Shown here one piece after another: positions 7,956-32,585 of a DNA stretch of 32,585 bases. Made by a program: the position numbers and the translations under genes. Numbering within the stretch: the stretch's first letter is position 1; every line of letters begins with the position of its first letter. The notes below the pieces were generated by a model that ran no database searches, was not told where the DNA came from, and saw only the letters and a list, made by a program, of their open reading frames with translations. The DNA is from Trueperaceae bacterium (GTDB lineage Bacteria > Deinococcota > Deinococci > Deinococcales > Trueperaceae), in assembly GCA_007130855.1 (NCBI GenBank), contig SLRS01000103.1, positions 1 to 32,585 on the forward strand, read 5' to 3'.

Positions 7956-7984
7956 TTGACTCGCATGCCCAATAGCGCTACGCT
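7956..7984 (+). promoter_or_regulatory. Putative sigma70-type promoter (TTGACT-17-TACGCT) for the cytochrome/C_GCAxxG gene
   Basis: Hexamers with 17-nt spacing about 90 nt upstream of ATG 8073. The region is relatively AT-rich. A cacac..gtgtg hairpin and a gaaaggg direct repeat overlap the RBS (8050-8072). Confidence 0.35.
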
Positions 7985-8072
7985 ACCGCCACATGTTCCT
8001 TCTTTCACAAGCGCGTCCACGTTGACGGCTCGCTGGCTACCTCCGAGTTCACACGGAAAGGGTGTGAAAGGG

Positions 8073-14680: not shown

Positions 14681-15128
14681 GCTGCTTCCTTCCCATCCGG
14701 CCGGGCGACGGTGTGTGGAAGCACCGTGGTCCGGCCAACGCCCACGATAGGGCACGACGAGGACCGCCGGGCAGGACCATCCGCCCCCGACGCCTCACCA
14801 CCGCGCGCGCCGCCACCGCTCCTCGACCCCATTGCCGCGGACGTGCCCGCGTCGCGCCCGGCTCGCCACGAAGGCCCAGCGCGCCGAGCCGACGTGCATG
14901 GTCGCCCAGGTACCGCAGTATGCGAACGATCCGAGCCGTCGGCCGGCGCCGCGCCGACTCGAACGACGGAGCACGTGCGACCGTCCATCGTGGGCCACAT
15001 CAGCCCCGCCACGACCCTTCGTGCGATCACGCGACCAGCCACGGGGACGCGCCTCAGGCGTGAAACCGCCGAGCCGCTCCGAGGGGGCGTGCTAGCCTGA
15101 GCGCATCTCGAGCGTCGGAGGCTCCGTC

Positions 15129-18100
15129 ATGCCATCGGTGAGCCGTGTTCCATTTCATGTTCGAAGCACTTTCTGGGCTGGCCAAGGGCCGGACACTGCC
15201 TGGCAGGCGACCCTCCTCTGGCGCCTGGCGCTGCTCGCGCTGGCGTTGGCCTGCACGCCGCTGACCGCCCGGGCGCAAGACGCCCCGATCCCCGCGCGCT
15301 TCGCCACCACCCACAGCGCCACCGACTACCCCGGCGGCGACCTGATGCCGATCTTCAACATCACCCTGGAGCAATGCCACGCCACCTGCCTGCGGCTGCA
15401 CGATTGCCTTGGCTTCACCTTCGACCAGCGCAACGACGCCTGCTTCCCCAAGCGCAGCCTGGGCGCGCCGATCCCGTTCGAGGGCGCGCTCTCCGGCGTG
15501 ATCTCGCACCACGGTGCGGCCGCGCTCGACCAGGCCCGAGCGGCTGCCGCAACGCTGAGCTTCCTCGACGGGTACGACTTCCAGGCCGCACGCGAACAGG
15601 CCACGTCCATGGCCGAGCGCTACCAAGCCGATGGCAGGACGGAGATCGCGCTCCTGGACGCGGCGCGCGGGCCGTCGCCAGCCCCAGTCGTCCAGTCGAC
15701 CGGCGCGGCCGTGACCGTGGCCGATGGTGGCGCGGCCTGGCTCGCCCATGCGCGCGCGCTGGCCGACGATGCCGCGCGCAACCGGAGCCGGCAGTACGAG
15801 TCGAGCCGGCAGGCCGCACTCGCGGCGCTCAATGCCAGCCTGCGCCTGCCCGAACCGGACCGCGCCCAGGCGCTGGCCGTCATGGCACGCGCGTTGGAGG
15901 CGACGTATCGGGGCGAGGCCGCCTTGAGCGCGCTGCGCCTCGCCGACCAGCTCAGCCCGAACGTCGCCTCCGACGAACTCGCACGCCTGCGCGAGCGCTT
16001 CGGCTTCCGCGTGCTGTCGCACGACGTCGACGCCGGCACCGCTACGCCCCGCATCTGCGTGCGCTTCTCGGAGGATCTCTCGCCCACGCGCGATCATGCG
16101 CCCTTCGTGCGCAGCGACACGCGCGCGCTCGCGCTCGAGATCGAGGGCCGGCAGCTGTGCGTGACGGGTGTCGCCTACGGCGAGAGCTACAGCCTGGTCT
16201 TGCGCGCGGGTCTTCCCAGCATCACCGGCGACGCGCTCGCGCGCGACGTGCCGCTCGAGGTCTACATCCGCGACCGCGCGCCGTCGGTGCGCTTCCCGGG
16301 CCGCGGCTACGTGCTGCCCGCCTTCGGCCCGCGCGCCCTGCCGGTGGAGACCGTCAACGCCGATGGGCTCGAGCTGCGGCTGCTGCGCGTCTCGGATCGG
16401 AACCTGGTGAACGCCATCCGCGAGGGCGCCTTCGCCCAGGCCATCAGCGTCTGGGAGGGCGAGCGTTTCGAAACGCTGCTCGCCGAGAGCGTCTGGCAGG
16501 GCGAGGCCCGGCTCGAAGGTCAGCTCAATCGCGCCACCACGTCGCGCCTCGCGCTCGATGACGTCGGCCCGCTCGAGCCCGGCGTCTACGTGCTGCGCGC
16601 GACCGTGCCGGCGACCGAGCCGTGGGACGTGGCGCCGGCCACGCAATGGTTCATGGTCTCCGACTTGGGCGTGACGACGCTCTGGGGCACGGACGGCCTG
16701 CACGTGGTCGCGCAGCGCCTCTCGGATGGCCAGCCCGTCGAAGGTCTGCGCGTGGCGCTGCTGGCGCGCTCGAACCGGCTCCTCGGCGAAGGCCACACCG
16801 ACTCGCAGGGCCACGTCCGTTTCGCGGCGGCGTCGACGCGCGGCACGGGCACGGCGGCCCCGGCGATGGTGTTGGTCGAAGGGGCCGACGACATGGCGGT
16901 GCTCTCGCTCGAGGAGAGCGAGTTCGACCTCTCGGACCGCGGCGTCACGGGGCGCCCAGCCTCTGGCCCCGTCGACCTCTTCCTGACCACGGACCGCGGT
17001 GCGTACCGTCCGGGCGAGGTGATCCACGTCACCGCCCTCGCCCGCGATCACCAGGCGCGCGCCATCCACGGTCTGCCGCTCACGGCGCGGCTGCTGCGCC
17101 CCGACGGGGTCGAGTACGCGCGCGTCGTCTCCGGGCACGAACGTGCCGGGGGGCACGTGATCTCGCTGCCGCTCGGCTTCGACGTACCGCGCGGAGCCTG
17201 GCGGGTCGAGATGCGCGCCGACCCGGACGCGCCCGCCCTGGCCAGCCAGACCGTGCTGGTCGAAGACTTCCTGCCCGAACGTATCGACTTCGAGCTGTCG
17301 CTGGCAGCTGACGGGCCGGTCGACCCCACCGCCCCGCCCGACGTGCTGATCACGGCGCGGCACCTCTTCGGCCCAGCCGCAGCGGGGCTGGCCTTGTCGG
17401 GCAGCGTGAGCGTGTACGCGACCCCCGAACTCGACGGCTGGCCGGGGTTCCACTTCGGCCGCTCGGATCAACGCATCGACGCTCAACGCCGCACGTTCGC
17501 CGGCGGCTTGCAGACCGATGCCGACGGGCGCCTCGCGGCTCCCCTGCCGCTCGATCGCATCACCCTCGACAACCGCCCCTATGCGCTTGACGTGAACGCC
17601 ACACTCGTCGACGGGGCCTCACGCCCGGTGGAGCGCAGCATGACGCGCGCGCTGCGGCCCGTAGGCCCCGTGATCGGCATCCGCCCCGGGTTCGACGACA
17701 GCCTGCCCGAGCACGCGGAGGCCACCTTCGACCTGGTGCTGGTCGACCCAGCCGGCGCAGCGATGCCCGGCGAGTTGCGTTGGCAGGTGGACCGCGTCCA
17801 CACCCGCTATCAGTGGTTCAGCCAGGGCGGGCGCTGGCATTGGGAGCCCGTGCACGAACGTCAGCGCGTCGCCGAAGGCGTCGTCACCGTGTCGGACGGT
17901 CCGATCCACCTCGCCGTACCCGTGACCTGGGGCCGCCACGACCTGCGCGTGACCTACGAGGGCGCGGCGCACGCCTCCGCCTCGCTTCCCTTCTCGGCGG
18001 GCTGGTACGCCGTCGCCGCGACCCGCGAGACGCCCGAGTTGCTCGCCCTGTCGCTCGATGCGACCGAGTACGCGCCCGGCGACGTGGCACGGTTGCGCAT

Positions 18101-20597
18101 CGTCCCCGAGGGCGCGGGTATGGCGCTCGTCTCGGTGCTCTCGGACCGGGTGGTCGACCTGCGCCTCGTCCCGGTCGAGGGTGAGACCACCGTCGAGTTG
18201 CTCGTGACCGACGACTGGGGCGTGGGTGCCTACGTCACCGCCAGCCTGATACGCCCCAGCGACGGTCCGGAGCACGTCAGCGCGCGCAGCCTCGGGCTGG
18301 CCCATGCCAGCGTTGCGCCCGGCGACCGCGCGCTGCACGCGCTGCTGAGCGCACCCACGGAGGTGAGGTCGAACGAACGGCTGGAGCTGGTGCTCGAACT
18401 GACGGGCGCGGCCGACGGACCCGCCTACGCCACCGTCGCGGCGATCGACCTCGGGGCGCTCACGCTCACCGGGTTCGCGTCGCCCGACCCGCTCGACCAT
18501 TACTTCGGTCAGCGGCGCCTGGGCGTGGCGATCCGCGACCTCTTCGGGCGACTGATCGACGCGCGTGCGGGCGCGATGGGGCAGGTGCGCTCCGGCGGCG
18601 GCCTCGACGCGGGCGACGCCCACCGCGACGGCCCCCTCCCGGCCGAAGACCTGGTGGCGTTCTTCACCGGCCCAGTGGAGCTGCACGACGGGCGCGCGCA
18701 CATCGGCTTCGATCTCCCGGCCTTCAACGGCACCCTGCGCGTCATGGCGATCACCTGGACCGACCACGCCGTCGGCCAGGCGCAGGCCGACGTGCTGGTA
18801 CGCGACCCGGTGGTGGTGCAGCCCAGCCTGCCGCGCTTCATGACACCGGGCGACGTCAGCCGCATCAGGCTGGAGTTGACCCATGCCACTGGTCCTGTCG
18901 GTGAGATGGCGCTGGCGGTGGTCGGCCACGGCGTGGGCGAGGTGCCGCCGAGCGTCACGCTACTCGAGGGCGAGCGCGCCGTGCTCGACCTGCCCCTGCG
19001 ACCCACCGCGGTCGGCGATCACGTCTACCAGATCGCGCTGACTACGCCCGACGGGCGCGTTCTGACGCGTGAGGTGCGCCTGAGCGTGACGCACACCGAC
19101 CCCGAGATCGCGCTGTCGACGCAGTTCGTGCTGGCGCCGGGCGAGAGCTACCGCTTCGACGAGGAGGCGCTGGCCGGCTTCCGAGCGGGCACCGCGCGGG
19201 CGACGCTGAGCGCCGGCGCCGGCGCCGCGCTCGACCTGCCGGGTCTCCTCCAGCGCCTGCTCACCTACCCCTACGGCTGCACCGAGCAGATTGCGTCGAG
19301 CCTCCAGCCGCTGTTGCTGGCCCGCACGCAGATCGCGGAACTCGGGCTCATGCGCGAGTCCGAGCTGCGCGAGCGGCTGCAGCTGGGCGTCGACCGCCTC
19401 CTCACGCGGCAGGGTCGCAGCGGCAGCTTCGGGACGTGGGGCGCGGGCGGGTACGACCTATGGCTCGACGCCTACGTCACCGACGTCTTGCTGCGCGCCG
19501 AGGCGCAGGGCGCGAGCGTCCCCGCGCAGGTGTTGCGCATGGCGCTGAACAACCTGCGCAACCAGGTGGCCCAGGCGGGATCGATCCACGACGGGGCCGC
19601 GGCCTATGCCTACGCCTTCTACGTGCTCGCGCGCGCGGGCGAAGCCGCGATCGGCGACCTGCGCTACTACGCCGACACGCTGGCCGAGCGCTTCGACACG
19701 CCGCTGGCGGCGGCCCAACTGGGCGCTGCCTTGGCAGCCTACGGCGAGCGGGCGCGCGCCGACGCGATGTTCGAGCGGGCGCGCGACCTGGCGCTCGCCA
19801 GCGCCGACGCGGGCGGCTGGCGAGACGACTACGGCACCCCCCTGCGCGACCGGGCCGGGCTGCTCGCGCTCGCGGTCGAAGCCGGCAGCGGCGTCGTGGA
19901 CCGGCTGCAGATCGCGAGCCTGCTCGCGCGTCGTGCTCCGGCGCATCAGCTCTCCACGCAAGAGGCCGCCTGGGCCCTGCGGGCGGCGGTCGCGATGGGC
20001 GCCGCGGGCCAGGGGCTCATCCTCGACGGCCGGCCGGTGGTCGGCGACGTCGTGCGGCTCGTCGGCGGCGAGCCTGCAGTCATCCGCAACGTCGGCAGCG
20101 CCAACGTGACGGTGACGCAGACCGCCTTCGGGGTGCCTGACGTCGCACCCGAAGCAGGCGGCATCGGCTACACGATCCACCGCCGTCACTCCACGATCGC
20201 GGGCGAGGAGGCCGACCTGAACGCCGTGCGCGTCGGCGACCGGGTGGTCGTCGACCTCGAGGTCCGGCCGGATCGAGGCGTGGCCGGCGGGCGGTTGCTG
20301 ATCGACGCGGCACTGCCGGCGGGGTTCGAGATCGACAACGCCAGCTTGCTGCGCGAGGGCGACATCCGCGCCCTCGACTGGCTGGCGGTCCACGTCTCGG
20401 CCGAGATGACCGAGGCGCGCTCGGATCGCTTCCTGGCGGCGGTCGATTGGGTCACGGAGGTGCCACTCCGGCTGGCCTTCGTGGTGCGTGCGGTCTCGCC
20501 GGGCGACTTCCACTACCCGGCGGCCGCGGTCGAGGACATGTACCGGCCCACCAACCGCGCGCTCAGCGACACGGGCCGCGTACGCATCGGCCCGTGA
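15129..20597 (+). CDS. Bacterial alpha-2-macroglobulin family protein (YfhM/ECAM-like) with N-terminal PAN/apple domain and CTEQ thioester motif
   Basis: - 1822 aa with GGAGG RBS and a signal/lipobox-like LALALAC.
- A PAN/apple-like Cys pattern sits near the N-terminus (FNITLEQCHATCLRLHDCLGFTFDQRNDACFPK).
- Long MG-domain-like beta-rich body.
- Thioester region LLTYPYGCTEQIASSLQPLL, followed by an alpha-helical TED-like domain and a receptor-binding-like C-terminus. Confidence 0.9.
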   Translation: MPSVSRVPFHVRSTFWAGQGPDTAWQATLLWRLALLALALACTPLTARAQDAPIPARFATTHSATDYPGGDLMPIFNITLEQCHATCLRLHDCLGFTFDQRNDACFPKRSLGAPIPFEGALSGVISHHGAAALDQARAAAATLSFLDGYDFQAAREQATSMAERYQADGRTEIALLDAARGPSPAPVVQSTGAAVTVADGGAAWLAHARALADDAARNRSRQYESSRQAALAALNASLRLPEPDRAQALAVMARALEATYRGEAALSALRLADQLSPNVASDELARLRERFGFRVLSHDVDAGTATPRICVRFSEDLSPTRDHAPFVRSDTRALALEIEGRQLCVTGVAYGESYSLVLRAGLPSITGDALARDVPLEVYIRDRAPSVRFPGRGYVLPAFGPRALPVETVNADGLELRLLRVSDRNLVNAIREGAFAQAISVWEGERFETLLAESVWQGEARLEGQLNRATTSRLALDDVGPLEPGVYVLRATVPATEPWDVAPATQWFMVSDLGVTTLWGTDGLHVVAQRLSDGQPVEGLRVALLARSNRLLGEGHTDSQGHVRFAAASTRGTGTAAPAMVLVEGADDMAVLSLEESEFDLSDRGVTGRPASGPVDLFLTTDRGAYRPGEVIHVTALARDHQARAIHGLPLTARLLRPDGVEYARVVSGHERAGGHVISLPLGFDVPRGAWRVEMRADPDAPALASQTVLVEDFLPERIDFELSLAADGPVDPTAPPDVLITARHLFGPAAAGLALSGSVSVYATPELDGWPGFHFGRSDQRIDAQRRTFAGGLQTDADGRLAAPLPLDRITLDNRPYALDVNATLVDGASRPVERSMTRALRPVGPVIGIRPGFDDSLPEHAEATFDLVLVDPAGAAMPGELRWQVDRVHTRYQWFSQGGRWHWEPVHERQRVAEGVVTVSDGPIHLAVPVTWGRHDLRVTYEGAAHASASLPFSAGWYAVAATRETPELLALSLDATEYAPGDVARLRIVPEGAGMALVSVLSDRVVDLRLVPVEGETTVELLVTDDWGVGAYVTASLIRPSDGPEHVSARSLGLAHASVAPGDRALHALLSAPTEVRSNERLELVLELTGAADGPAYATVAAIDLGALTLTGFASPDPLDHYFGQRRLGVAIRDLFGRLIDARAGAMGQVRSGGGLDAGDAHRDGPLPAEDLVAFFTGPVELHDGRAHIGFDLPAFNGTLRVMAITWTDHAVGQAQADVLVRDPVVVQPSLPRFMTPGDVSRIRLELTHATGPVGEMALAVVGHGVGEVPPSVTLLEGERAVLDLPLRPTAVGDHVYQIALTTPDGRVLTREVRLSVTHTDPEIALSTQFVLAPGESYRFDEEALAGFRAGTARATLSAGAGAALDLPGLLQRLLTYPYGCTEQIASSLQPLLLARTQIAELGLMRESELRERLQLGVDRLLTRQGRSGSFGTWGAGGYDLWLDAYVTDVLLRAEAQGASVPAQVLRMALNNLRNQVAQAGSIHDGAAAYAYAFYVLARAGEAAIGDLRYYADTLAERFDTPLAAAQLGAALAAYGERARADAMFERARDLALASADAGGWRDDYGTPLRDRAGLLALAVEAGSGVVDRLQIASLLARRAPAHQLSTQEAAWALRAAVAMGAAGQGLILDGRPVVGDVVRLVGGEPAVIRNVGSANVTVTQTAFGVPDVAPEAGGIGYTIHRRHSTIAGEEADLNAVRVGDRVVVDLEVRPDRGVAGGRLLIDAALPAGFEIDNASLLREGDIRALDWLAVHVSAEMTEARSDRFLAAVDWVTEVPLRLAFVVRAVSPGDFHYPAAAVEDMYRPTNRALSDTGRVRIGP

Positions 20598-20629
20598 GCC
20601 CACCCCGGCTCGCACCGCGAGCGCGAGCG

Positions 20630-22657
20630 ATGCCGGCGCGCTCGATGCGCGCGGGTCTCGCGCTCCTGGCGCTCGCGCTGCTGCTGTGGTTCGGCGCCGA
20701 CCGCTGGGTGGCCACGACCGACGTGCCGCCGCTGGCGCTCGAGACCTCCGTCGAGGTGCTGGCGGCGAGTGGTCAGCTGTTGCGCGCCTTCACGGTCGCC
20801 GACGGGCGCTGGCGGCTGGCGCTGGCGTCGGAGCGGGTCGACCCCGGCTACCTGGCCATGCTGATCGGTTACGAGGATCGTCGCTTCTTCGAGCATCGCG
20901 GGGTGGACCCGCTGGCGCTCGCGCGCGCCCTTTGGCAAGCCGTGTCGAGCGGCCGACGGGTCTCGGGCGGGTCGACCCTGACCATGCAGGTCGCACGCCT
21001 GCTCGAGGATGGCTCGACCGGCTCCTGGACGGGCAAGCTGCGCCAGATCCGGCTCGCCCTGGCGCTCGAGCGCGTCCTCTCGAAGGACGAGATCCTCTCG
21101 CTCTACTTGCATCACGCGCCGATGGGCGGCAACCTCGAGGGCGTCCGCGCGGGCGCGCTCGCCTGGTTCGGCAAGGAGCCCGGCCGGCTGACCGAGGCGG
21201 AGGCGGCGCTGCTGGTCGCACTGCCGCAGGCGCCGAGCCTGCGCAGCCCCGACCTCCACCCCGAAGGGGCGCGCGTGGCGCGCGACCGGGTGCTGACACG
21301 CTCCGCGGCAGTGGGCGTGATCAGCGCCGATGCGGCGCGCGCCGCGCTGCGCGAGGCGCTGCCCAGCGTGCGCCGCCCCTTCCCGGCCCACGCACCGCAC
21401 GTGGCGGACCGCCTCCGCTCGGTCGAGCCCGAACGGCAGGTCCACCGCACGACCATCGATGCGCAACTCCAGGCGGCGCTGGAGGAACTGGCCGCGGACG
21501 CGCTGCGCGATCTGCCACCGCAGGCGACGCTCGCGCTGCTCGTCGTCGAGTTGGAGAGCGGCAGCATTCGGGCCAGCGTCGGCTCGGCCGACTACACCAG
21601 CGACGCCCGGCGCGGCTTCGTGGACATGACCCAGGCGCTGCGCTCGCCCGGGTCGACGCTGAAGCCGCTGGTCTACGGACTGGCGTTCTCCGACGGGATC
21701 GCCCACCCGGAGACGCTGCTCAACGACCGACCCGCCAGCTACGCCGGCTACGCGCCGCGGAACTTCGACCACACCTTCCGTGGACCCGTCAGCGCGCGCG
21801 AGGCGTTGCACGCCTCGCTGAACCTGCCGGTCGTCGAACTCACGCACGCCCTGGGCCCGGCACGGCTGATGGCGGCGCTGCGACAAGCGGGGATCCAGGC
21901 CGAGGTGCCCGGCGACACGCCGGGGCTGGCGGTCAGCCTGGGTGGTGTCGGGATGAGCCTCGAGGGCCTGGTGCAGCTCTACGCCGGCATCGCCCGCGGC
22001 GGTGAGGCGCTGGCCCTCTCGCTCGTCGAAGGTGCAGCCCAGCCGCGGGCGCGGCTGGTGACGCCCGCGGCTGCCTGGCATCTCGGCGCGATCCTCGCCG
22101 GGACGCCGCGCTCCGCACGGCTGCCCGACTGGCCCCTGGCCTTCAAGACCGGTACCTCGCACGGCCACCGCGACGCCCTGGCGCTCGGCTTCGACGGCGC
22201 CTTCGCCGTCGGCGTGTGGGCGGGGCGCGCCGATGGCGCCCCCGTGCCGGGCATGTACGGGGCCGAGGTGGCGGCTCCCCTGCTCTTCGAGACCTTCGCG
22301 CGACTCGGCGAACGGCCGGCGGCGTTGCCGCCCGCACCGCCTGGGACGCTGATCGCCTCCAGCGCCGAACTGCCTGCGCCGCTGCGGCAGTTCGGCACGA
22401 GGCTGGTCCAGACCGAGGACGCGCCGCGCCTCACCTTCCCCCCGGACGGGGCCGCGCTCGCACCGCTGGCGGGCGGGATCCTGACGCGGGTCGAGCGCGG
22501 ACGCGCGCCCTTCACCTGGTTCGCCAACGGCGCGCCCGTGCTGCTCGCGAGCCATGAGCGCGAGGCGCGGCTGGACCTGGAAGGCCCTGGCTTCGTGACG
22601 CTCGCCGTGGTCGACGCGGAAGGGCGTTCGGCGCGGGTGCAGGTCGAACTGCGGTAG
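20630..22657 (+). CDS. pbpC: Penicillin-binding protein 1C (glycosyltransferase family 51 transglycosylase + transpeptidase-like + PBP1C C-terminal domain)
   Basis: - N-terminal anchor MPARSMRAGLALLALALLLWF.
- GT51 motifs LIGYEDRRFFEHRGVDP and RVSGGSTLTMQVARLL.
- TP-domain motifs (GSTLKP, KTGTS).
- Sits immediately downstream of the A2M gene, the conserved yfhM-pbpC arrangement.
- Start 20630 vs 20645 is uncertain. Confidence 0.85.
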   Translation: MPARSMRAGLALLALALLLWFGADRWVATTDVPPLALETSVEVLAASGQLLRAFTVADGRWRLALASERVDPGYLAMLIGYEDRRFFEHRGVDPLALARALWQAVSSGRRVSGGSTLTMQVARLLEDGSTGSWTGKLRQIRLALALERVLSKDEILSLYLHHAPMGGNLEGVRAGALAWFGKEPGRLTEAEAALLVALPQAPSLRSPDLHPEGARVARDRVLTRSAAVGVISADAARAALREALPSVRRPFPAHAPHVADRLRSVEPERQVHRTTIDAQLQAALEELAADALRDLPPQATLALLVVELESGSIRASVGSADYTSDARRGFVDMTQALRSPGSTLKPLVYGLAFSDGIAHPETLLNDRPASYAGYAPRNFDHTFRGPVSAREALHASLNLPVVELTHALGPARLMAALRQAGIQAEVPGDTPGLAVSLGGVGMSLEGLVQLYAGIARGGEALALSLVEGAAQPRARLVTPAAAWHLGAILAGTPRSARLPDWPLAFKTGTSHGHRDALALGFDGAFAVGVWAGRADGAPVPGMYGAEVAAPLLFETFARLGERPAALPPAPPGTLIASSAELPAPLRQFGTRLVQTEDAPRLTFPPDGAALAPLAGGILTRVERGRAPFTWFANGAPVLLASHEREARLDLEGPGFVTLAVVDAEGRSARVQVELR

Positions 22658-22699: not shown

Positions 22700-23638
22700 T
22701 CAGTCGGTGCCGCCCGCGAACACGCTGCTGGCCCCAGCCGCCCCCTGCGCCCGCGCCAGCTCGATCATCCGCGCCGGAACGATGAGCCCGTCGCCATGTT
22801 CCGCGCCTGCGGCCAACAGGGCGGCGAGGTCACTGGCGTGCAGCTCCGGCGCCACCTGGAGCGCCAGGGCCAGCACACCCACGAGGTACGGAGCCCACTG
22901 GCTGTCGCCGCCCTCGACATCGTAACGGTAGTGTCTCGCGTGGTGATGGCCCGCCACCGTCCGGTGATGGGCGGGAGCGTAGACGGTGACGTAACCGAGT
23001 TCCGCGTCCGACGCAGCTCGGCGTGCCAACACGTCAGCGACCGACTCATCCTTGGCGCGCCAGAAGGCGGCCTCCCCCGGCGAGAAGGTGAACGCCTCCG
23101 GCAGCCTGCAGTCGCGCCACGGCGAACAGCCGAGCCCGCGGATCGCGAGCGGCGGATCCAGGAACGCCAGCGGGTACACGCTCAGCAACACGAAGACGTC
23201 GCTGTCGATCGCGCGCCGGATCGCTGCATCGACCACGGTACGCTCCTCGTCTCGGTACCCGGTCGACGCGCTCAGCAGACGCACGCGCTCATCGTGCGGC
23301 AACGTGCGGTTGCGGTCGACGACGTGATCGATCGCCATAGCGAGGCGCTCCGGCGTGAGCCGCGCGAAGTCGACGGCGAAGTAGTGCAGCTCCGCGCCCG
23401 GAGCGACGCCGACGGACCGCCCCACCAGGAGACTGGCCATCGCCGGGCCATGCATCTCGAACGGCAAGCCGGAGAAGTCGTCGAGTTCCTCGTAGTGGCG
23501 GAGCCGGTCGGCGTACTCCACGTGATCACGTCGGACCTTGCCGTCGATGATGGCGACGGCGACACCGGAGCCCGTCAAGCCCTGGGCGTGCAGGCCCCGT
23601 ACGCCGAGCCCAGGGTCCTTTGCGCGCTCGCGCTGCAC
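22700..23638 (-). CDS. Subtilisin-like serine peptidase (S8 family), apparently without signal peptide or propeptide
   Basis: - Catalytic-triad motifs: GLTGSGVAVAIIDGKV (Asp), HGPAMASLLVG (His), GGDSQWAPYLVGVLALAL (Ser).
- The upstream ~100 codons of ORF 22700..23962 are Arg-rich.
- Start tentatively at GTG 23638 (MQRERAKDPGLGV...); alternative GTG at 23695. Confidence 0.65.
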   Translation of the reverse strand: MQRERAKDPGLGVRGLHAQGLTGSGVAVAIIDGKVRRDHVEYADRLRHYEELDDFSGLPFEMHGPAMASLLVGRSVGVAPGAELHYFAVDFARLTPERLAMAIDHVVDRNRTLPHDERVRLLSASTGYRDEERTVVDAAIRRAIDSDVFVLLSVYPLAFLDPPLAIRGLGCSPWRDCRLPEAFTFSPGEAAFWRAKDESVADVLARRAASDAELGYVTVYAPAHHRTVAGHHHARHYRYDVEGGDSQWAPYLVGVLALALQVAPELHASDLAALLAAGAEHGDGLIVPARMIELARAQGAAGASSVFAGGTD

Positions 23639-23698
23639 GCTCCGCTGCGAGCGCTTCCGCCAGCCTCTGCCGGCCTGCGTCGCCGGGCGCGCCACCCT

Positions 23699-23736
23699 GC
23701 ATCGACCGGGGTCGATGGAACGCCAATGGAACGCCA
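23699..23736. promoter_or_regulatory. Inverted repeat (catcgac-cggg-gtcgatg) immediately followed by a perfect tandem direct repeat 2 x atggaacgcca in the divergent intergenic region
   Basis: Seen in sequence. Lies between the divergently oriented S8 peptidase (-) and the secreted tandem-domain protein (+, ATG 23847). An operator-like architecture. Confidence 0.4.
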
Positions 23737-23846
23737 GGCCGCTAGGCTTACCGACCTCGGATGGCAGGCGCCTGCCACGGCGTCGGCCGTGCGACCGAGT
23801 GGGCGCGGGAAAGCGCGTCACACCGCACACCGAGGAGGGGGTAGAC

Positions 23847-24533
23847 ATGCGACGAGGATCGACCATCATGACCATGGCGGCTGCTCTGGTGCTGGCCGGC
23901 GCCGCGCAGGCGACGGACGAGCGGCAGGTGGCTCGCACGATCGACGAGTTCATCGCGCTCAATCCAGCCCTCGAGCACTACGGACCGCTGCACGAGGAGT
24001 GGTCGCCGGCGATGGGCATCCACTGGGGCGCACCCGGCCCACACGTCACCCTCGGGGTCGGCCACGGCGACAAGGTCGTGGTGATCGAGGTGATATACCC
24101 CGAGCAGATCGGCTGGCAGCCGTGGTTCGACCAGCCCGAGGGCGAACCGATGGAGTTACCCGGCTTGGGCATGGCCTACACGCAGCACATCTGGATCACC
24201 GAGCCGGACTCGGTCGTGCCCGGTGGCGATCCCGAGTTCGTGCCGCTCACCCTCGAGGCGCTCAGCGAGGTCAACCCCGCCCTCGAGGGATACGCACTCC
24301 TCTCGCCCGAGTACGTGCCGCACATGGGGTACCACTACGGGGTGATGGGCCCGGGCCTCGTGCTGGCCGTGTCGCCGCAGGGTGACATCAACGCGTTCGA
24401 ACTGCTCTTCCCGGTGGAGGGCGGCCACTACCCGTGGTTCGACCAGCCCGAAGGCGAACCGATGGACCTGCCCGGGCTCGGCCTGGTGTACTCGCAGCAC
24501 GTGTACGTGGTCGATCCGATGTCACTGCCCTGA
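23847..24533 (+). CDS. Secreted hypothetical protein consisting of two homologous ~105-aa repeats (shared PWFDQPEGEPM-LPGLG motif)
   Basis: - Strong GAGGAGGGG RBS and signal peptide MRRGSTIMTMAAALVLAGAAQA.
- Repeat 1: ...NPALEHYGPLHEEWSPAMGIHWG...WQPWFDQPEGEPMELPGLGMAYTQHIWITEPD.
- Repeat 2: ...NPALEGYALLSPEYVPHMGYHYG...HYPWFDQPEGEPMDLPGLGLVYSQHVYVVDP.
- No family recognised. Confidence 0.75.
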   Translation: MRRGSTIMTMAAALVLAGAAQATDERQVARTIDEFIALNPALEHYGPLHEEWSPAMGIHWGAPGPHVTLGVGHGDKVVVIEVIYPEQIGWQPWFDQPEGEPMELPGLGMAYTQHIWITEPDSVVPGGDPEFVPLTLEALSEVNPALEGYALLSPEYVPHMGYHYGVMGPGLVLAVSPQGDINAFELLFPVEGGHYPWFDQPEGEPMDLPGLGLVYSQHVYVVDPMSLP

Positions 24534-24633: not shown

Positions 24634-25257
24634 TCAGAACCACGCTTCGACGATCACCACCCGGTCCAGCGAATGCGCGCCGTGGTGGGCCCGGTGGAAC
24701 ACCCGCCACACCGGCGTGCCGTGATCGATCGGACCCACGACGGCCGAGCCGTCGTCGCAGCCGTAGTCGATGCGCATGCCGGCGATACCCGCGGTCGCGC
24801 CGGTCAGCAGCCCGCAGCGCTGCCCGCCCTCGAGCACCAGCGCCCAGGCGCGCGCAGACGGGTAGTCGGGATCGATCGGCTCCGCGGACCGCTCAGGCAG
24901 GTCTTGCAACACGGTGAGCTCGACCACCTCGAGCGAGAACGGCTCGCGCGCGCAGTGGAGCACCGCCCCGCCCACCATCGGATCGAGGAAGCACGGGTCG
25001 AGGATGGCGGAACCGGCCTCGCAACGATAGGCGTCGGGCCGCTCCGGGCTCGCGAGCGAGCGGGCAAGACACGATCCCTCGACGTGCTCGACCACCTCGA
25101 TCCCGGTCGTGAGACGACCGGCCACCGATGGTGTGAACACGCGCAGCTGCGTGACGGCCACCGGCTGCGCGAGCGCGGGCGTGGCGCTGCCAAGGACGGC
25201 GACGAGGGTGGCCGCGATCGTCGTCAGCGCCAGCACGTTTCGAAGCGGTGTGGGCAC
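24634..25257 (-). CDS. Secreted Cys-containing hypothetical protein
   Basis: GTG start with TGGAGG RBS. Signal peptide MPTPLRNVLALTTIAATLVAVLGSATPALA|QP. About 180-aa mature protein with 7 Cys. Lies 54 nt downstream of the ABC-2 permease on the same strand. Confidence 0.7.
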   Translation of the reverse strand: MPTPLRNVLALTTIAATLVAVLGSATPALAQPVAVTQLRVFTPSVAGRLTTGIEVVEHVEGSCLARSLASPERPDAYRCEAGSAILDPCFLDPMVGGAVLHCAREPFSLEVVELTVLQDLPERSAEPIDPDYPSARAWALVLEGGQRCGLLTGATAGIAGMRIDYGCDDGSAVVGPIDHGTPVWRVFHRAHHGAHSLDRVVIVEAWF

Positions 25258-25311
25258 GGGAGCCTCCAGGTGAACGGGGCGGGGCTGGTTCGTGGACAGC
25301 TGTCGTCGCCG

Positions 25312-27064: not shown

Positions 27065-27553
27065 TCAAGCCTGTCGTTGTGCCCAGCTGCGGGCCGGGTA
27101 GGACGCCAGCAGCACGAGCCCGTCGACCACATCCGGGCTGCGCTTGACGAACTCCGCCGCCATCGCCCCACCCAACGAATGCCCACCGATCAGCCAGGGG
27201 CTCACCTCCGGGAAGGCTGCAATCACGTCGGCCGCGCGAGCCACGCCGAACACCGCCAGTTCGAGCGGCATCGGCACGAGCACGCTCAGCACCCCGCCGT
27301 CAGCGCGGCGCCGCAGGAGCGGCGCGTACGCCGCCGCATCGACCAAGCCGCCGGGGTAGAACACCAGCCCCGCCAGCGGCTCCCCCTCAGGCGCGAACAC
27401 GTACCAACCGCGCAGACGCTCGGCGTCCTGTGCGAGCGTGACCGCCTCCGGAAACCCGCCATAGCGAGCTGCTCGCGTCCAGCCGTAGAAGCTGGTCGCC
27501 CCGAGCGCCAACAACGCCAGCGCAACCACTGCAACCTTGAGCCACCTGTTCAT
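27065..27553 (-). CDS. Short alpha/beta-hydrolase-like protein (GHSLGG), signal-anchored; possibly truncated
   Basis: - Start MNRWLKVAVVALALLALGATSFYGW, with a GAGG RBS.
- Motifs FYPGGLVDAAAY and IGGHSLGGAMAAEF.
- Only about 45 aa follow the nucleophile Ser before the stop, so the Asp/His of the triad may be missing. Confidence 0.6.
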   Translation of the reverse strand: MNRWLKVAVVALALLALGATSFYGWTRAARYGGFPEAVTLAQDAERLRGWYVFAPEGEPLAGLVFYPGGLVDAAAYAPLLRRRADGGVLSVLVPMPLELAVFGVARAADVIAAFPEVSPWLIGGHSLGGAMAAEFVKRSPDVVDGLVLLASYPARSWAQRQA

Positions 27554-27849
27554 CGAAACCTCGCTGTGCGGCCATGCGCGCGCGATGCGCGTGCACTCGA
27601 CGAGTGTACCGGCGCGCAGGGCGACCACGCGGTCGACCTGGAGGTGCCTCTCGCCATGCTCCTCGGTGGACTCGAACGGAACGCGCCGAGATAGGGCGCA
27701 ACGGCCCCTCATCGATCTCGGAGCAGCGGCCGATCTCGGGACGTTCGTCCCTGGAGGCGGTGGCTCGACTCGGTGCGTCGTGAAGTCGACGAGGCTGGTT
27801 GGGTTGCGAATCGCCGATGACGCGACGGACGTCGCGGAAGGGACGGCTC

Positions 27850-29493
27850 ATGGCGATCGTCACGCGAGGTCTTCTTGCAATCCTCGTGCTCACCGTCGGC
27901 GGCCTCGCGTGGGCCGGGGCGGTGTCGCGGCTGTCGGCCACCGGTTGGCCGATCGTCATCGACGGGTTCACACCGGGAGCGAGGTACTCGTTGTCGGTGT
28001 ACGGGACGGTGGCGTACCCGGGGACGATGGAACGCCCGCTCACCGTCTACCGAGACGCATGTTTCGAGTACGAGGGCCCAGGCTTCGTCACGTACCCTGG
28101 GACGCCGGCGGCAGTGTTCCAGAACGACTTCGGGGTGGAGGTGTGCGGGGTTGACCCGGGATACCGGGACGGCGCGTATCGGACCCTGGAGCGGGTCGAG
28201 TTCGTGGCGCCCCGAGAACGGATGGTGGCGTGGATGGTGCCGCCGAACCTGCCGGAGCGCGACCTGGTCGCCGCGGGGTGGCAGAACCTGCAGGTGTTCG
28301 TGCGGGCGCTGGATCGGCAGCACGTGGGCCCTCCACCCGAGCAGCTCAACTACTGCCTGATGCGCCGACCGTTGTCGATCCAGCCGACGAGCGGCCCGCC
28401 GGTGTGCTTCGAGTTCAGGCGGGCGTTCGCCTTCGCCGTGGTCGATCGCCTGGTTGACGTCGACTTCGACACCTGCCTGCTGACCGACCTCGCGCTCCGT
28501 CAGGGCTGGGAGCTCGATCCGTCCTTCGGTGGGCCCTACGGTGGTTACAGGCGCGCGGAGGAGGCGTACTTCGTGGTCACCCCGCTTCGGTACCCGCGCC
28601 CGACAGGCGACTTCTACCGCTGCCGCGGCGCGCCGCGGGCGGTGCCAGATCCGGCCCCTGATCCGGCCGCCGACCCGCTGCTGAGCGATCCCTCGGGCTT
28701 CGATCCGTTCCGATGGTCGGCCACGCCCCCGTTCGACCCTTCCCGCGTCGATCCCGACCCGTTCGCTCCCGCCTTCTTCGATCCACGGAGCGTCGATGCC
28801 GCCGTGCTCGCCGCCTATGGTGTCTTCGGTGCGAACTCGTGCCCGTGGGCCTTCGACGGCGAGTGCGACGAGCCTGGGATCGGCACCGGCCTCTGCGCCG
28901 CCGGTACGGACACGTTCGACTGTCGCGGCGTCTCGTTCGATTGGTCGAACAGCTGTCCCTGGGCGTTCGATGGGGAGTGCGACGAGCCCGCCATCGGGAC
29001 GGGCCTCTGCCTGCCGGGCACCGACACGTTCGACTGCGCTGGCGCCTTGGCCGTCGCGCCCGCGCCCGCACCGACACCGGAGCCGCCGACCGCCGAACCG
29101 CCGCTGCCAGCGGACGTCGAACGCCGCGAACGTGCGTTGGATGCGTGCGACGTCTGGTCGGTGGCGAACTCTGGCGGCGCCGAGGGCACGGTCGACGTGT
29201 GGGACATCCGCGCCATCCCCGATGGCGCCGTCTTCGACCTGCGCTTCGATGCCCGCTCGGAGCCCGACCGCTACCGCGTGACACACGCCGGCGTGCAGGT
29301 GTACGACAGCGGTTGGCGTGGTGCGAGTCACTTCGATGGTGATGTGCGCTTCGATGGCGGTCTCGCAGGCCCGGGGCGAGGTGAGGCGCTCGATCTGTTC
29401 GTGAAGCGCGGCCAGGCCGACTTCACGGTGACGGTGGTCGGTGGTACGTCGAGCACGATCTGGGATTACCGGGTCCGGTGTCGCCTGCCATGA
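27850..29493 (+). CDS. Large secreted hypothetical protein: N-terminal ~260-aa domain, Pro/Asp-rich linker, two tandem 4-Cys repeats (SCPWAFDGECDEPxIGTGLC..GTDTFDC), Pro/Ala/Glu linker, C-terminal ~150-aa domain
   Basis: - GGAAGGGA RBS and signal peptide MAIVTRGLLAILVLTVGGLAWAGA.
- Repeat units at about residues 340-372 and 385-417 are nearly identical.
- Linkers: DPAPDPAADPLLSDPSGFDPFRW...DPSRVDPDPFAPAFFDP and APAPAPTPEPPTAEPP.
- The ORF-track start at 27799 was rejected. Confidence 0.75.
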   Translation: MAIVTRGLLAILVLTVGGLAWAGAVSRLSATGWPIVIDGFTPGARYSLSVYGTVAYPGTMERPLTVYRDACFEYEGPGFVTYPGTPAAVFQNDFGVEVCGVDPGYRDGAYRTLERVEFVAPRERMVAWMVPPNLPERDLVAAGWQNLQVFVRALDRQHVGPPPEQLNYCLMRRPLSIQPTSGPPVCFEFRRAFAFAVVDRLVDVDFDTCLLTDLALRQGWELDPSFGGPYGGYRRAEEAYFVVTPLRYPRPTGDFYRCRGAPRAVPDPAPDPAADPLLSDPSGFDPFRWSATPPFDPSRVDPDPFAPAFFDPRSVDAAVLAAYGVFGANSCPWAFDGECDEPGIGTGLCAAGTDTFDCRGVSFDWSNSCPWAFDGECDEPAIGTGLCLPGTDTFDCAGALAVAPAPAPTPEPPTAEPPLPADVERRERALDACDVWSVANSGGAEGTVDVWDIRAIPDGAVFDLRFDARSEPDRYRVTHAGVQVYDSGWRGASHFDGDVRFDGGLAGPGRGEALDLFVKRGQADFTVTVVGGTSSTIWDYRVRCRLP

Positions 29494-29532
29494 CGCCGGC
29501 TGGCTGAGTGTGCTGGGCGGTAGGCTGCCGGA

Positions 29533-29558
29533 TGATCGCGGAGAAGGTGATCGCGGAG
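29533..29558. repeat. Direct repeat 2 x tgatcgcggag separated by 4 nt
   Basis: Seen in sequence, about 120 nt upstream of the small ORF at 29676. Possible transcription-factor site. Confidence 0.3.
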
Positions 29559-29675
29559 CGCGACCTTGGCGCCCTGCTGCCCGAGTCCGCTGTCGCCGGC
29601 CTGCACTTCGTCCCGGCCGCGACCCTTCCGGCCGCGCGGTTTCCGCCCCGTCGCCACAGACCGAGGAGGATACGG

Positions 29676-29912
29676 ATGACCCAACTGCTGGCGTTCGCCA
29701 AGCCACAGCCGTTGCTGACGTTCTTCGCGCTGACGTTCGCCATCTCCTGGGGCGGCATCCTCATCAGCGTCGGGGTCGACGGGCTCTTCGGTGTGTCGGA
29801 GCTCGATGAGGCCCGACTGCCGTTCGTCTATCTGGCGATGCTCGCCGGCCCGAGTGCCGTGGCCGACAGTAGGCAGCGTTTACGGCGGCGGTTCTCGAAC
29901 CGGGCTGTCTGA
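29676..29912 (+). CDS. Small hydrophobic ORF (78 aa), possibly the truncated 5' fragment of a membrane-protein gene
   Basis: A strong GAGGAGGA RBS sits 5 nt before the ATG. MTQLLAFAKPQPLLTFFALTFAISWGGILISVGVDGLFG... is membrane-like, but the C-terminal 15 residues are Arg-rich junk before the stop. Confidence 0.35.
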   Translation: MTQLLAFAKPQPLLTFFALTFAISWGGILISVGVDGLFGVSELDEARLPFVYLAMLAGPSAVADSRQRLRRRFSNRAV

Positions 29913-30089
29913 GGAGCCCCTGAAGACGACCGCTGGTCTTCGGGGTCGCTTCGCGCGATGCAGGGCGCCGCGCCGCGGTCGGCTCATGCGCCTGCGTGGC
30001 CATCACATGGAGCGCACCGGCCCCAGATGCGAGCGGCGCGATCACACGCGGTCTTCGGATCTCCGCCAGCGGTCGTCCACCGGACGCCT

Positions 30090-31298
30090 TCATGACCCAC
30101 GAGCGACTGGCCTGCTACCGCCTCGCGCACCTGCGCGCTGCGCCAGCGGCGACATCGCCCGCAGCCAGCGCCCCACCGAACGGAACGGTAGCGGCCCGGC
30201 GTTCACCTGATCGACCGTGCCCACCAGATCGACGTCGAGTACCGGGCAATGGAACGCCCACGAACCGGTCGAGCCCGTGTGCCCTACCACCGCCGGCGGC
30301 CGGTTGATCGGCGCAAGCAGCCACGGCAGATCGAAGCGCATCACGCCATGCCCGTACTCGATGGGCCACCCCGGCCGCCGCAGCGCCGCAGGGTCGAAGC
30401 CCTGCCGGAAGCGACGGAACGGCCCGGCCATGCGCTCGAAGGCACCGGGGTCGCCGTCGAAGAGCCGCCCCTCCACCAAGCCGCGCAGCAAGGACAGTTG
30501 GTCCTCGAGCGTGCTGTACATGGCGTACGTCGAACGCAGCGTGGCCGGGGCGTCGAACGGCTCGGTACCGGCCCAGAGCGTGGCGGCGGCTGCGGTCCGC
30601 ACGTGCTGCGGGTCGTCGTGCGACGCCACCCAAGTGGCGTCCATCCGCAACGGCTCGAACACCAGCGAGCGGTATGCCTCCGCCACGTGCCGGCCCTCGA
30701 CCACCTCGAGGATCGTCTTGAGGGCCAGGTAGTTCGTATCGCAGTACTGCGCCCGGGCCTTCGGGCTGCTCAGGTCCTGGGGCGGGTAGTGCGGCCGAAG
30801 CTGCTCGCGCACACGCGCGAAGGCCGCTTCGCGCGACCAGCCCGCGTCGCCCTGGGCGAGCGTCTCCTCCACCAGGCTGCGGCCCCCCTTCGGCCGGTCC
30901 TCGAGGTAGTCGGCCAAGCCCGAGGTGTGGCTCAGGAGGTGACGCACGGTGACCTGGTCCGTTCGGTCGGTGCCGCCCATCACGTGCAGGCCGGCGCCGA
31001 GCCCGGCCGGTAGGTACGCCAGCATCGGCGCGCCCAGGTCGAGGCTGCCCCGCTCCGCCAGCAGGAACAGCGCCGTAGCCGTGACGAGCTTGTCGACGCT
31101 GGCGACGAAGTAGGGGGTCTCGACGGTCATCGGCATGCCATCGGGGCGGGCCTCGCCGAGGGCGCCGCGCCAGATGAACGAGCCGTCGCCACTGCGCACG
31201 GCAAAGGTGGCGTGGGCGACATCGGGCCGGGCGACGAGCCGCTCGAGGCACTCATCGAGCCCTTCGCGCGCGCGCTCGTGTCTCGCGAGATCGGCCAT
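30090..31298 (-). CDS. Beta-lactamase-family serine hydrolase (class C-like, SxxK = SVDK)
   Basis: The ATG at 31298 is preceded by GGAGG 7 nt upstream. MADLARHERAREGLDECLERLVARPDV...YFVASVDKLVTATALFLL...YCDTNY... matches the family. The ORF frame stays open upstream to 31586 through a hydrophobic stretch (see findings). Confidence 0.8.
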   Translation of the reverse strand: MADLARHERAREGLDECLERLVARPDVAHATFAVRSGDGSFIWRGALGEARPDGMPMTVETPYFVASVDKLVTATALFLLAERGSLDLGAPMLAYLPAGLGAGLHVMGGTDRTDQVTVRHLLSHTSGLADYLEDRPKGGRSLVEETLAQGDAGWSREAAFARVREQLRPHYPPQDLSSPKARAQYCDTNYLALKTILEVVEGRHVAEAYRSLVFEPLRMDATWVASHDDPQHVRTAAAATLWAGTEPFDAPATLRSTYAMYSTLEDQLSLLRGLVEGRLFDGDPGAFERMAGPFRRFRQGFDPAALRRPGWPIEYGHGVMRFDLPWLLAPINRPPAVVGHTGSTGSWAFHCPVLDVDLVGTVDQVNAGPLPFRSVGRWLRAMSPLAQRAGARGGSRPVARGS

Positions 31299-31362
31299 CA
31301 ACAAGCCTCCAGGTGCGCCCGTCCCCAGGCGGGATCGAAGCGGGACGTCCGCCGCCTGGACG

Positions 31363-31818
31363 CTACCTGGGTGGAGGGCCAAGCGGCCGGCGCGGGCCGC
31401 CCAACGCACCACCGAGGGGACGCAGAGCGGACGCACCTGATGCTGACGCGCGAGCGCCGCCAAACCCACGGGCACGAAACCCGCTACCGAGTAGTACCAT
31501 GCGGCCCCCAGTGCGCCTCCAGCCGCCGTCGCGCCCGTCACGTGGAAGGCGGGGACGCGGTTCATCGGACCCAGGTACCAGAGCACCAGCCACCGACCGG
31601 GTAGAAGCGGCGAGCGACAGGAAGAAGCCGAGCGTGGTCGCCATCAGGGTGCCGATCCAGGCCGCGTCGTAGACCCCTCGGTATGCCCCCAGGCGCAGCA
31701 TGAACACCTCGCTCACGATCGCGTAACCGAGCAGCACCGCCAGCGCCACGATCACCACGAACGAGAAGCGGCGCACCTCACGGAAGTCGGCGGCAGCCAC
31801 ACCGGCGACAGCGTTCAT
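31363..31818 (-). CDS. Small membrane protein ORF; probably frameshifted, with only the first ~78 codons coding-like
   Basis: MNAVAGVAAADFREVRRFSFVVIVALAVLLGYAIVSEVFMLRLGAYRGVYDAAWIGTLMATTLGFFLSLAAS has a coding-like GC2/GC3 pattern and two TM helices. Thereafter this frame becomes Arg/Gly junk, while the +1 frame (the hydrolase ORF frame) becomes hydrophobic and coding-like (LVLWYLGPMNRVPAFHVTGATAAGGALGAAWYYSVAGFVPVGLAALA). Confidence 0.3.
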   Translation of the reverse strand: MNAVAGVAAADFREVRRFSFVVIVALAVLLGYAIVSEVFMLRLGAYRGVYDAAWIGTLMATTLGFFLSLAASTRSVAGALVPGSDEPRPRLPRDGRDGGWRRTGGRMVLLGSGFRARGFGGARASASGASALRPLGGALGGPRRPLGPPPR

Positions 31819-32057
31819 GCCGCGCCGACGGCGCCTGAGCCCACCGCGTGGAGGTACGCATCCTCGAGCGTCGCTGCCACCGGTGAGAGACAGCAGGCGC
31901 AGTGGAAGTCGTTGACCGAGCGTGTCGTCGCGCTGCGCCGACGTACCGGCGCTCGCCGCGTGTACCGTCGTTGTGCGACGGGTACGGCGCGCGACGCAGC
32001 CGTCCAGCACCTGTTCGGGGGCTGGACAGCAGTCGCCGCAGCCCCCGCAGCGCTACC

Positions 32058-32585
32058 GTGAGGTCATGCGCACCCTTGCACTCATCCTCGTCGTGCTCGC
32101 GCTCGGCGCCTGCGTCCCCACCGTCGACGGCGTCGGCGACGACGCCGTCATCCCCGGCGCCGGCGTCGCGTCGGTACCGTTCGGAGACCTCACCACCGGC
32201 TACGAGGTGCTCGGTAGCGGCCCACCGGTGGTGATGGTGCACGGCATCGGCGGCGGCTCGAGCGTCTTCCAGTACCGCCTCAACGCCCCCACCGTGGCGG
32301 CCGCCGGCTACCGCGTCTACGCCCTCGACCTGCTCGGCTTCGGCCGCTCCTCGCGTCCCGAGCAGCGCAGCACCCAGGACGACCTCGTCGCGCAGGTGAC
32401 CGCGTTCCTCGAGGACGTCGTCGGCCAGCCAGCGGTCCTGGTCGCGAACGGGCTCTCCGCCGCCCACGCGATCCGCATCGCCGCCGAGCGGCCCGAGTTG
32501 GTCTCGGGCCTGGCGCTCATCGCGCCCACCGGCTACCGCAGCCTGAACCGTCCCCAGGACGCCGCGCGCGAGCGCACCTTCGACG
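32058..32585 (+). CDS. Alpha/beta hydrolase lipoprotein (partial; continues beyond window)
   Basis: MRTLALILVVLALGAC has an L-G-A-C lipobox. This is followed by VVMVHGIGGGSSVFQY...YRVYALDLLGFGRS...ANGLSAAHAIRIAAERPELVSGLALIAP, typical alpha/beta-hydrolase (HGxGG, nucleophile-elbow-like) features. The frame stays open to the window end. Confidence 0.75.

Follow-up and report, generated by a model that had tools for sequence, protein, structure and literature searches.

The window analyzed here, a stretch of 32,585 nucleotides (nt) from a Trueperaceae bacterium (GenBank assembly GCA_007130855.1, contig SLRS01000103.1), carries at positions 27850 to 29493 of its forward strand a gene for a protein of 547 amino acids (aa). 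The most likely explanation of this protein, and one that we hold with about even confidence, is a soluble, Sec-exported, disulfide-rich mosaic protein that serves outside the cytoplasm as a lectin-like or adhesin-like binding protein. It consists of four autonomous module types, namely two N-terminal sub-domains (A and B), a Cys/Asp repeat, and a C-terminal domain (the C-domain), connected by spacers rich in Pro and Asp. All four are domain families without a match in Pfam, NCBIfam, or the Protein Data Bank (PDB). The novelty lies in this missing annotation and in the lack of a structural neighbor rather than in a new kind of system.

Gene, export signal, and module architecture

Positions 27850-29493 (+) are a real, conserved gene for an exported protein. 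The open reading frame (ORF) list gives an ORF at 27799..29493 (+) of 564 aa from a TTG start, and the ATG at position 27850 ('MAIVTRGLL') shortens the product to 547 aa, in agreement with the database entry P0001 and with all homologs. The G+C content at third codon positions (GC3) of the forward frame is 0.84, as expected for a real gene in a window of 70% G+C. A first-pass annotation made from the sequence alone had called a 547-aa secretory protein on this strand, and the start codon, the GC3 value, and the hydrophobic signal peptide bear it out. The 665-aa antisense ORF that it reported is indeed present at 27709..29706 (-), and is a shadow ORF of the kind typical of high-GC DNA. Conservation, which the same annotation had named as a test of the ORF, is seen in a search of 5.8 billion proteins, with ~25 clusters of full-length homologs that have the complete architecture at 36-76% identity. 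The only named reference genomes with full-length members are metagenome-assembled genomes of uncultured Trueperaceae (Deinococcota). Neither a sigma-70-like promoter nor an intrinsic terminator was found within 27500-30100. The features of the gene and its product, all on the forward strand, are as follows.

27836..27843, +, Shine-Dalgarno-like sequence GGAAGGGA, 6 nt 5' of the ATG, read from the sequence
27850..29493, +, gene for the secreted mosaic protein, 547 aa, stop codon included (ORF list, GC3, identical database protein P0001, homologs)
27850..27915, +, Sec-type signal peptide, aa 1-22 (MAIVTRGLLAILVLTVGGLAWA / G), without a lipobox Cys (judged by eye from the translation; homologs similar)
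27919..28314, +, sub-domain A, aa ~24-155, beta-sandwich with Cys71 and Cys99 (strands predicted by AlphaFold2, occurrence as a module in other proteins, hhalign)
28327..28635, +, sub-domain B, aa ~160-262, small alpha/beta domain with Cys169, Cys186, Cys209, and Cys258 (alignments of homologs)
28636..28827, +, linker 1, aa 263-326, DP/FDP-rich and predicted to be disordered (composition; AlphaFold2 predicted local distance difference test score, pLDDT, <50)
28828..28929, +, repeat unit 1, aa 327-360, core cysteines C331, C339, C349, and C358 (regular expression, hidden Markov model, AlphaFold2)
28942..29043, +, repeat unit 2, aa 365-398, core cysteines C369, C377, C387, and C396 (regular expression, hidden Markov model, AlphaFold2)
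29044..29106, +, linker 2, aa 399-419, Pro-rich spacer of the PAPAPTPEPP type (8 Pro in 21 residues; variable among homologs)
29107..29490, +, C-domain, aa 420-547, beta-sandwich with invariant Cys433 and Cys544, ending T-x-W-x-Y-x-V-R-C-R (conservation, AlphaFold2, hidden Markov model)

Export is indicated because a signal peptide is present and because the proteins that share the repeat have secreted or ectodomain architectures. The signal peptide, read by eye, ends in A-W-A followed by G, the N-termini of homologs are likewise hydrophobic and end in A-x-A, and no other hydrophobic segment occurs in the protein. We recognized no anchor (LPXTG, SLH, or lipobox) in it. All 16 cysteines sit in even numbers within modules. 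The Pro/Asp linkers of the first-pass annotation were found at aa 263-326 and aa 399-419; linker 1 contains 14 Pro and 10 Asp/Glu in its 64 residues, and differs in length and sequence among homologs. The N-terminal region of ~260 aa described there also stands, but as two domains, A and B, rather than one. The C-terminal domain is 128 aa long and not ~150 aa, and instead of two unassigned globular domains there are three, each of which also occurs alone elsewhere.

The Cys/Asp repeat and its carriers

The two predicted units of ~30 aa with four cysteines each were confirmed, with cores at aa 331-358 and aa 369-396 (nt 28840-28923 and 28954-29037). Both match a profile made from the units of other proteins, at 2e-19 and 2e-18, and both fit the consensus [GD]-[DN]-[DN]-[ST]-C-x-[WYF]-A-x-D-[GN]-E-C-D-[ED]-P-x-[IYF]-G-[TG]-G-x-C-x2-G-[TS]-D-x2-D-C, in which the cysteines are spaced C-x7-C-x9-12-C-x8-C and D6, D10, G22, D24, and D27 of the core are invariant. 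The repeat region of the window protein has 13 acidic residues and 1 basic residue in 72. It is not an oddity of one protein but a widespread mobile module, found mainly in trypsin-like peptidases that proteobacteria secrete. A regular expression retrieved 525 units in 120 proteins (668 by hidden Markov model), with 1-9 units per protein and a period of mostly 38-40 aa, and a single word-filtered search, scoring only the 8,000 candidates with the most shared words, gave at least 182 matches. The great majority of carriers are trypsin-like peptidases secreted by Rhodobacteraceae and other Pseudomonadota, with the array starting directly past their signal peptide. Further carriers are proteins with a caspase domain (Peptidase_C14) and PG_binding_1, proteins with GYF_2 and PG_binding_1, an LCCL protein, and the ectodomains of Ser/Thr kinases (Pkinase and PEGA), while P0031, P0040, and P0053 contain little besides repeats. 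That the units match none of the common Cys repeats, as had been proposed, agrees with the Pfam and NCBIfam scans, which gave no family at E≤1 anywhere in the window protein and none over the repeats of 9 and 6 other carriers. The motif strings occur in no searchable paper, and keyword searches of the literature returned nothing relevant. The repeat is a common but unnamed, widespread, and strongly constrained mobile module.

All four cysteines are kept in 663 of 665 units detected by hidden Markov model, and the two exceptions lack Cys1 and Cys3 together. Because these two are lost jointly, disulfides C1-C3 and C2-C4 are favored for the repeat unit on comparative grounds. The degenerate units belong to P0096 and P0119, Ser/Thr kinases with PEGA ectodomains that end in Cys/Asp units; each has one such unit, with the acidic motif kept, and these appear to be natural single-disulfide variants of the knot.

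AlphaFold2, supplied with a 64-row alignment of tandem pairs, predicts two independent compact beads (mean pLDDT 87.3, units ~88-93), each with only one 4-residue helix and otherwise almost devoid of secondary structure, and a dip in confidence between them (predicted template modeling score, pTM, 0.47). In the full-length model the repeats are unusable, at pLDDT 35-43, and the tandem-pair alignment was needed.

The repeat is like the low-density lipoprotein receptor class A (LDL-A) module of enteropeptidase, TMPRSS, and corin, in that both are extracellular, disulfide-rich, very acidic units of ~35-40 aa that occur in tandem and N-terminal to a trypsin-fold protease, with almost no regular secondary structure but a short C-terminal helical turn. 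There is also a local likeness between C-x2-G-[ST]-D-x2-D-C in the repeat and C-x-D-G-S-D-E-x2-C in LDL-A. However, LDL-A has six cysteines (C1-C3, C2-C5, C4-C6) at other spacings where the repeat has four, and the repeat does not have its N-terminal beta-hairpin lobe. In the C-terminal half of LDL-A, where the acidic Ca2+ cage (D-x-x-x-D-x-x-D-E type) lies, the match to the enteropeptidase module is local, covering 14 residues at E ~0.5. Pfam PF00057, searched to E≤1, matches neither the window protein nor any of nine further proteins rich in the repeat; as a positive control, the LDLR sequence gave 7 LDL-A matches at 1e-95. Homology with LDL-A was rejected, with an hhalign probability of 3.9% over 13 columns against an LDLR alignment and both fold searches empty, and the relation is at most one of analogy, not membership.

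Thrombospondin type-3 and Excalibur repeats are also short, Asp-rich, Cys-containing extracellular units, and are thought to be rigidified by Ca2+. The Excalibur motif is D-x-D-x-D-G-x-x-C-E, which the D-G-x-C-D/E of our repeat recalls, but the Dx[DN]xDG register is absent from it. Membership in TSP_3, Excalibur, EGF_CA, dockerin, or the myxococcal Cys-repeat was rejected, with no Pfam or NCBIfam match even at E≤1. The recently described CysRRep (2026 preprint, bioRxiv 10.64898/2026.06.07.730663) differs in having six cysteines and another spacing, Cx6-9Cx5-7Cx8-11Cx7-8CC.

The distribution of the repeat could also be explained if it were an envelope-targeting module that attaches to a polymer of the cell wall or S-layer, possibly with Ca2+ as a bridge, which would make the window protein a wall-associated scaffold. 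This is unlikely on balance. It would account for the co-occurrence of the repeat with PG_binding_1 in the caspase and GYF_2 proteins and with kinase ectodomains, for the peptidase arrays that begin directly after the signal peptide, and for a window protein that has no other anchor. However, a second wall-binding module would be redundant beside PG_binding_1, most partners are trypsin-like peptidases with 4-9 copies, which is more typical of spacers or avidity arrays, and in family scans the repeat is unlike the known wall-binding repeats (SLH, LysM, SPOR, choline-binding).

A spacer made of rigid beads, purely structural and without a ligand, in which copy number tunes the reach between the end domains, is rather unlikely. 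Its predictions agree with a copy number that is highly variable even in one population, with the independence of the modeled beads, the dip between them, and the pTM of 0.47, and with the low-complexity linkers on either side. Against it, the surface-exposed residues W/Y/F3, A4, D6, E8, D10, E11, G22, T23, D24, and D27 are near-invariant across phyla, and P0031, P0040, and P0053 consist mostly of repeats.

Terminal domains and a proposed binding function

The C-domain is the best-conserved and best-modeled part of the protein (pLDDT 80-94). HMMER, run exhaustively against 1.84 billion representatives, found carriers in 376 representative clusters at E≤1e-3 and in 111 at E≤1e-30, and they span Deinococcota, Myxococcota, and Balneola; position and architecture were counted in the 146 representatives listed among these 376 carriers, and Pfam partners in 78 carriers. 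In 114 of the 146 (78%), no more than 12 aa separate the end of the domain from the C-terminus; in 32 it is internal, and it also occurs in tandem and, in 14 proteins of 200 aa or less, alone. P0122 (1884 aa) has six tandem copies and P0192 (2737 aa) three, unlike the usual single terminal copy. In P0148, P0152, P0168, P0195, P0201, and P0205 an extra tail of 25-35 aa follows the C-domain, ending ALRQFPVLREGR in P0195 and P0205, and could be a separate C-terminal signal. The partner domains are PKD (31 of the 78), Big_1/2, He_PIG, Invasin_D3, SLH, FG-GAP, and LCCL. Outside the Trueperaceae family, not one of the 146 listed carriers contains the Cys repeat. In the window protein and the 78 carriers, the C-domain has no counterpart among Pfam, NCBIfam, or PDB-sequence models, and its PDB matches are at chance level only.

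In surface proteins built as a stalk with a tip, the last domain is usually the ligand-binding tip, as is established for invasin and intimin. Because the partners of the C-domain are PKD- and Big-type stalks with the C-domain at their distal end, it may be the tip of a surface binder. The likeness to invasin/intimin-type and PKD-stalk proteins lies in this position at the distal end of PKD, Big_1, Big_2, He_PIG, and Invasin_D3 arrays. In contrast to the C-type-lectin-like tip of invasin and intimin, the C-domain is a jelly-roll-like beta-sandwich with a Cys433-Cys544 pair, and in the window protein Cys knots and Pro/Asp linkers stand in for the stalk, with Ig-like domains, a beta-barrel, and other anchors all absent.

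The terminal position of the C-domain in 114 of the 146 representatives, its conserved final W-x-Y-x-V-R-C-R, and the many carriers that are large multi-domain surface proteins would also suit a secretion or sorting tag comparable to the C-terminal domain (CTD) of type IX secretion system (T9SS) cargo, with the window protein as cargo of an export pathway not yet recognized. We regard this as highly doubtful, as the domain is internal in 32 of the 146 and repeated up to six times in P0122, and the 14 proteins of 200 aa or less consist of a signal peptide and a C-domain only, with no cargo left. Moreover, the carriers in Deinococcota, Myxococcota, and Balneola share no dedicated system, and neither T9SS CTD models nor other sorting-domain models in Pfam or NCBIfam match the window protein or the 78 carriers. 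The carrier phyla include ones that are not known to have a T9SS.

Sub-domain A, for which AlphaFold2 predicts strands at pLDDT 55-80, was found outside the family by a profile search with the N-terminal region, where it either makes up a whole secreted protein of 123-160 aa or is part of a different fusion. Its relatives share the invariant motifs NDACYEFNAKGYPDPLPV and DTDYRDNSG. Compared by hhalign with an alignment of the PA-IL family (LecA, PllA, and a third homolog), sub-domain A aligns end to end over 99 columns with a probability of 56% and an E-value of 1e-4, while the C-domain, run as a control against PA-IL, gives 0.1%. Sub-domain A is thus a possible remote relative of PA-IL/LecA, a moderate lead from profile comparison and not proof. 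The A family differs from the galactophilic lectins PA-IL (LecA), PllA, and EclA in its own invariant NDACYEFNAKGYPDPLPV and in a Cys pair that is absent from LecA. P0272, P0273, P0276, and P0277 are sub-domain A alone (123-160 aa, secreted), with near-invariant NDACYEFNAKGYPDPLPV and DTDYRDNSG, and are candidates for an unrecognized family of small PA-IL-like lectins in diverse bacteria.

Sub-domain B has only chance-level PDB matches and just 3 homologs outside the family. It is duplicated in P0010, P0013, P0015, and P0267, and in the first copy of P0267 Cys1 and Cys3 are missing together. Because of this joint loss, its disulfides may likewise be C1-C3 and C2-C4.

A lectin-like or adhesin-like binding protein could work as follows. 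After export, each repeat unit would form the disulfides C1-C3 and C2-C4, and the carboxylates of D6, D10, E11, D24, and D27 would chelate Ca2+ and so stiffen the unit into a bead with a role like that of LDL-A or thrombospondin type-3. One to six such beads, with the extended linkers, would space or orient the terminal beta-sandwiches A and C, whose target would be a glycan or a ligand on a surface. In proteobacterial carriers, such beads would serve to hold or display the trypsin-like, caspase-like, and kinase-sensor domains, much as LDL-A does in animal mosaic proteases. The adhesin or binding role put forward in the first-pass annotation is consistent with the partner domains of the modules (PKD/Big stalks and the PA-IL comparison), and we found no evidence for its other candidate function, cargo binding. 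Coordination of Zn, Cu, or Fe by the cysteines of each unit, with no disulfides and the protein acting as a periplasmic metal buffer or sensor, is very improbable, for although each unit packs four invariant cysteines into 28 residues among many carboxylates, the carriers are all exported proteins, the C-x7-C-x9-12-C-x8-C spacing comes with no His or CxxC knuckle spacings, and two units have lost exactly Cys1 and Cys3 while keeping the rest of the motif, which fits paired disulfides and not a Cys4 site.

Several points weigh against the binding-protein reading. The steps of the mechanism are all ones that we infer. The protein has no recognizable anchor, so that it could be a binder without being an adhesin. 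The PA-IL link of sub-domain A is only moderate at 56%, with no match of the Pfam PA-IL family to sub-domain A and with PllA recovered at only E=2.1 in an hmmsearch of the PDB. The loop of the A family that aligns with the Ca2+/galactose loop of LecA is itself missing from the window protein, where DTDYRDN is replaced by PPNLPERDLVAAG, and the nearest relatives likewise do not have it; at the aligned position, LecA reads N-D-V-P-G-T-Y-G-N-N-S-G, the A family D-T-D-Y-R-D-N-S-G, and the window protein P-P-N-L-P-E-R-D-L-V-A-A-G. The joint loss of cysteines in the repeat comes from two related kinases, and is probably one evolutionary event.

A broader proposal, which we put forward tentatively and consider doubtful as a whole, is that the unit of four cysteines and six carboxylates defines a bacterial family of extracellular disulfide knots that bind Ca2+, one not described before and new in structure. 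The knot would have arisen by convergence with the LDL-A module of eukaryotes, and bacteria, as animals do with LDL-A, would assemble secreted mosaic serine proteases, proteins of the caspase type, and receptor kinases from it, with unequal recombination rapidly tuning the number of copies. In the Trueperaceae protein it would be joined to two undescribed lectin-like families. Naming the families, two of which (the Cys/Asp repeat and the C-domain) are widespread, would help to annotate many proteins of marine and saline bacteria that are now entered as 'hypothetical' or 'trypsin-like peptidase'. As a compact, confidently modeled knot without a structural neighbor, the repeat is a cheap target for structure determination and probably a new Ca2+-binding scaffold. 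Current understanding is not overturned, and the window protein is one more modular secreted protein.

Repeat copy number and gene neighborhood

Homologs of the window protein carry 1, 2, 3, or 6 repeat units, which answers the question of copy-number variation raised by the first-pass annotation. Its description of the two window units as almost identical holds for the protein (82% identity) but not for the DNA (73.5%). Because 12 of the 18 codons that differ between them are synonymous and only 6 are not, the repeat peptide is under purifying selection. The two units are old; recent slippage was rejected as their origin, as TRF does not detect them and their DNA identity is low, with mostly synonymous differences.

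A contig from GCA_007118245.1, with flanks 99.8% and 98.8% identical to those in the window, codes for this protein too, but with an additional, exact unit of 38 aa. In this three-copy allele, units 2 and 3 are recent (107 of 114 nt identical), and a DNA comparison with the near-identical contig L018 identifies unit 2 of the window as a chimera of three-copy units 2 and 3, with a crossover within unit positions 62-108. In a third contig, 99.1% identical, the crossover lies within unit positions 6-60, and hence there are two breakpoints. The difference between two and three copies reflects either real unequal recombination in one population or assembly collapse of the three-copy allele, and real variation is mildly favored because the identical stretches, at 47-55 nt, fall below the k=141 that the name of one contig suggests. 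With two breakpoints in one population, this polymorphism neatly illustrates, on a small scale, how repeat number changes in a surface-type protein.

The gene is a stand-alone gene, and its neighbors in the window are unrelated envelope and hydrolase genes. No conserved neighbors were found at three distant loci and fourteen genome loci, and synteny exists only between near-identical contigs. An operon or system context was rejected: an alpha-2-macroglobulin/PBP1C pair, an ABC-2 transporter, and hydrolases lie nearby but have no connection to the family. We also rejected an origin or use in phages, as neither the repeat nor the C-domain occurs in IMG/VR contigs.

Directly downstream, a small ORF at 29508-29912 (+), 134 aa with a hydrophobic stretch LLTFFALTFAISWGGILISVGV and no Pfam match, starts 15-40 nt past the stop codon of the target gene, with which it may be co-transcribed. 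It is called as 126 aa in the near-identical contigs (L018, 4797-5177; L019, 4683-5063) and was seen in such loci only, not beside more distant homologs.

Elsewhere in the window, 15129-20597 (+) encodes an 1822-aa bacterial alpha-2-macroglobulin (bMG2/3/5/6/10, bait region, TED) with a weak N-terminal PAN-like match, and adjoining it 20447-22657 (+) encodes a PBP1C-type penicillin-binding protein (Transgly, Transpeptidase, and BiPBP_C), which together form the well-known A2M/PBP1C pair. The two ORF calls overlap by ~150 nt, and the PBP1C start is probably downstream of 20447. Five ORFs of 207-458 aa have no Pfam match at E≤1e-3, at 3281-4657 (-), 4895-5710 (-), 7277-8200 (-), 23538-24530 (+), and 24634-25257 (-). 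Judged by GC3, only some of them are likely to be real genes: 4895-5779, 23526-24533, and 24634-25311 pass, and 3281-4657 and 7277-8200 fail. An S8 subtilase lies at 22700-23962 (-). The density of serine-hydrolase-type genes in the window is unusually high, with four alpha/beta-hydrolases and two beta-lactamase-fold proteins at 408-1844, 6227-7249, 12755-14755, 27065-27712, 30090-31586, and 31916-32584.

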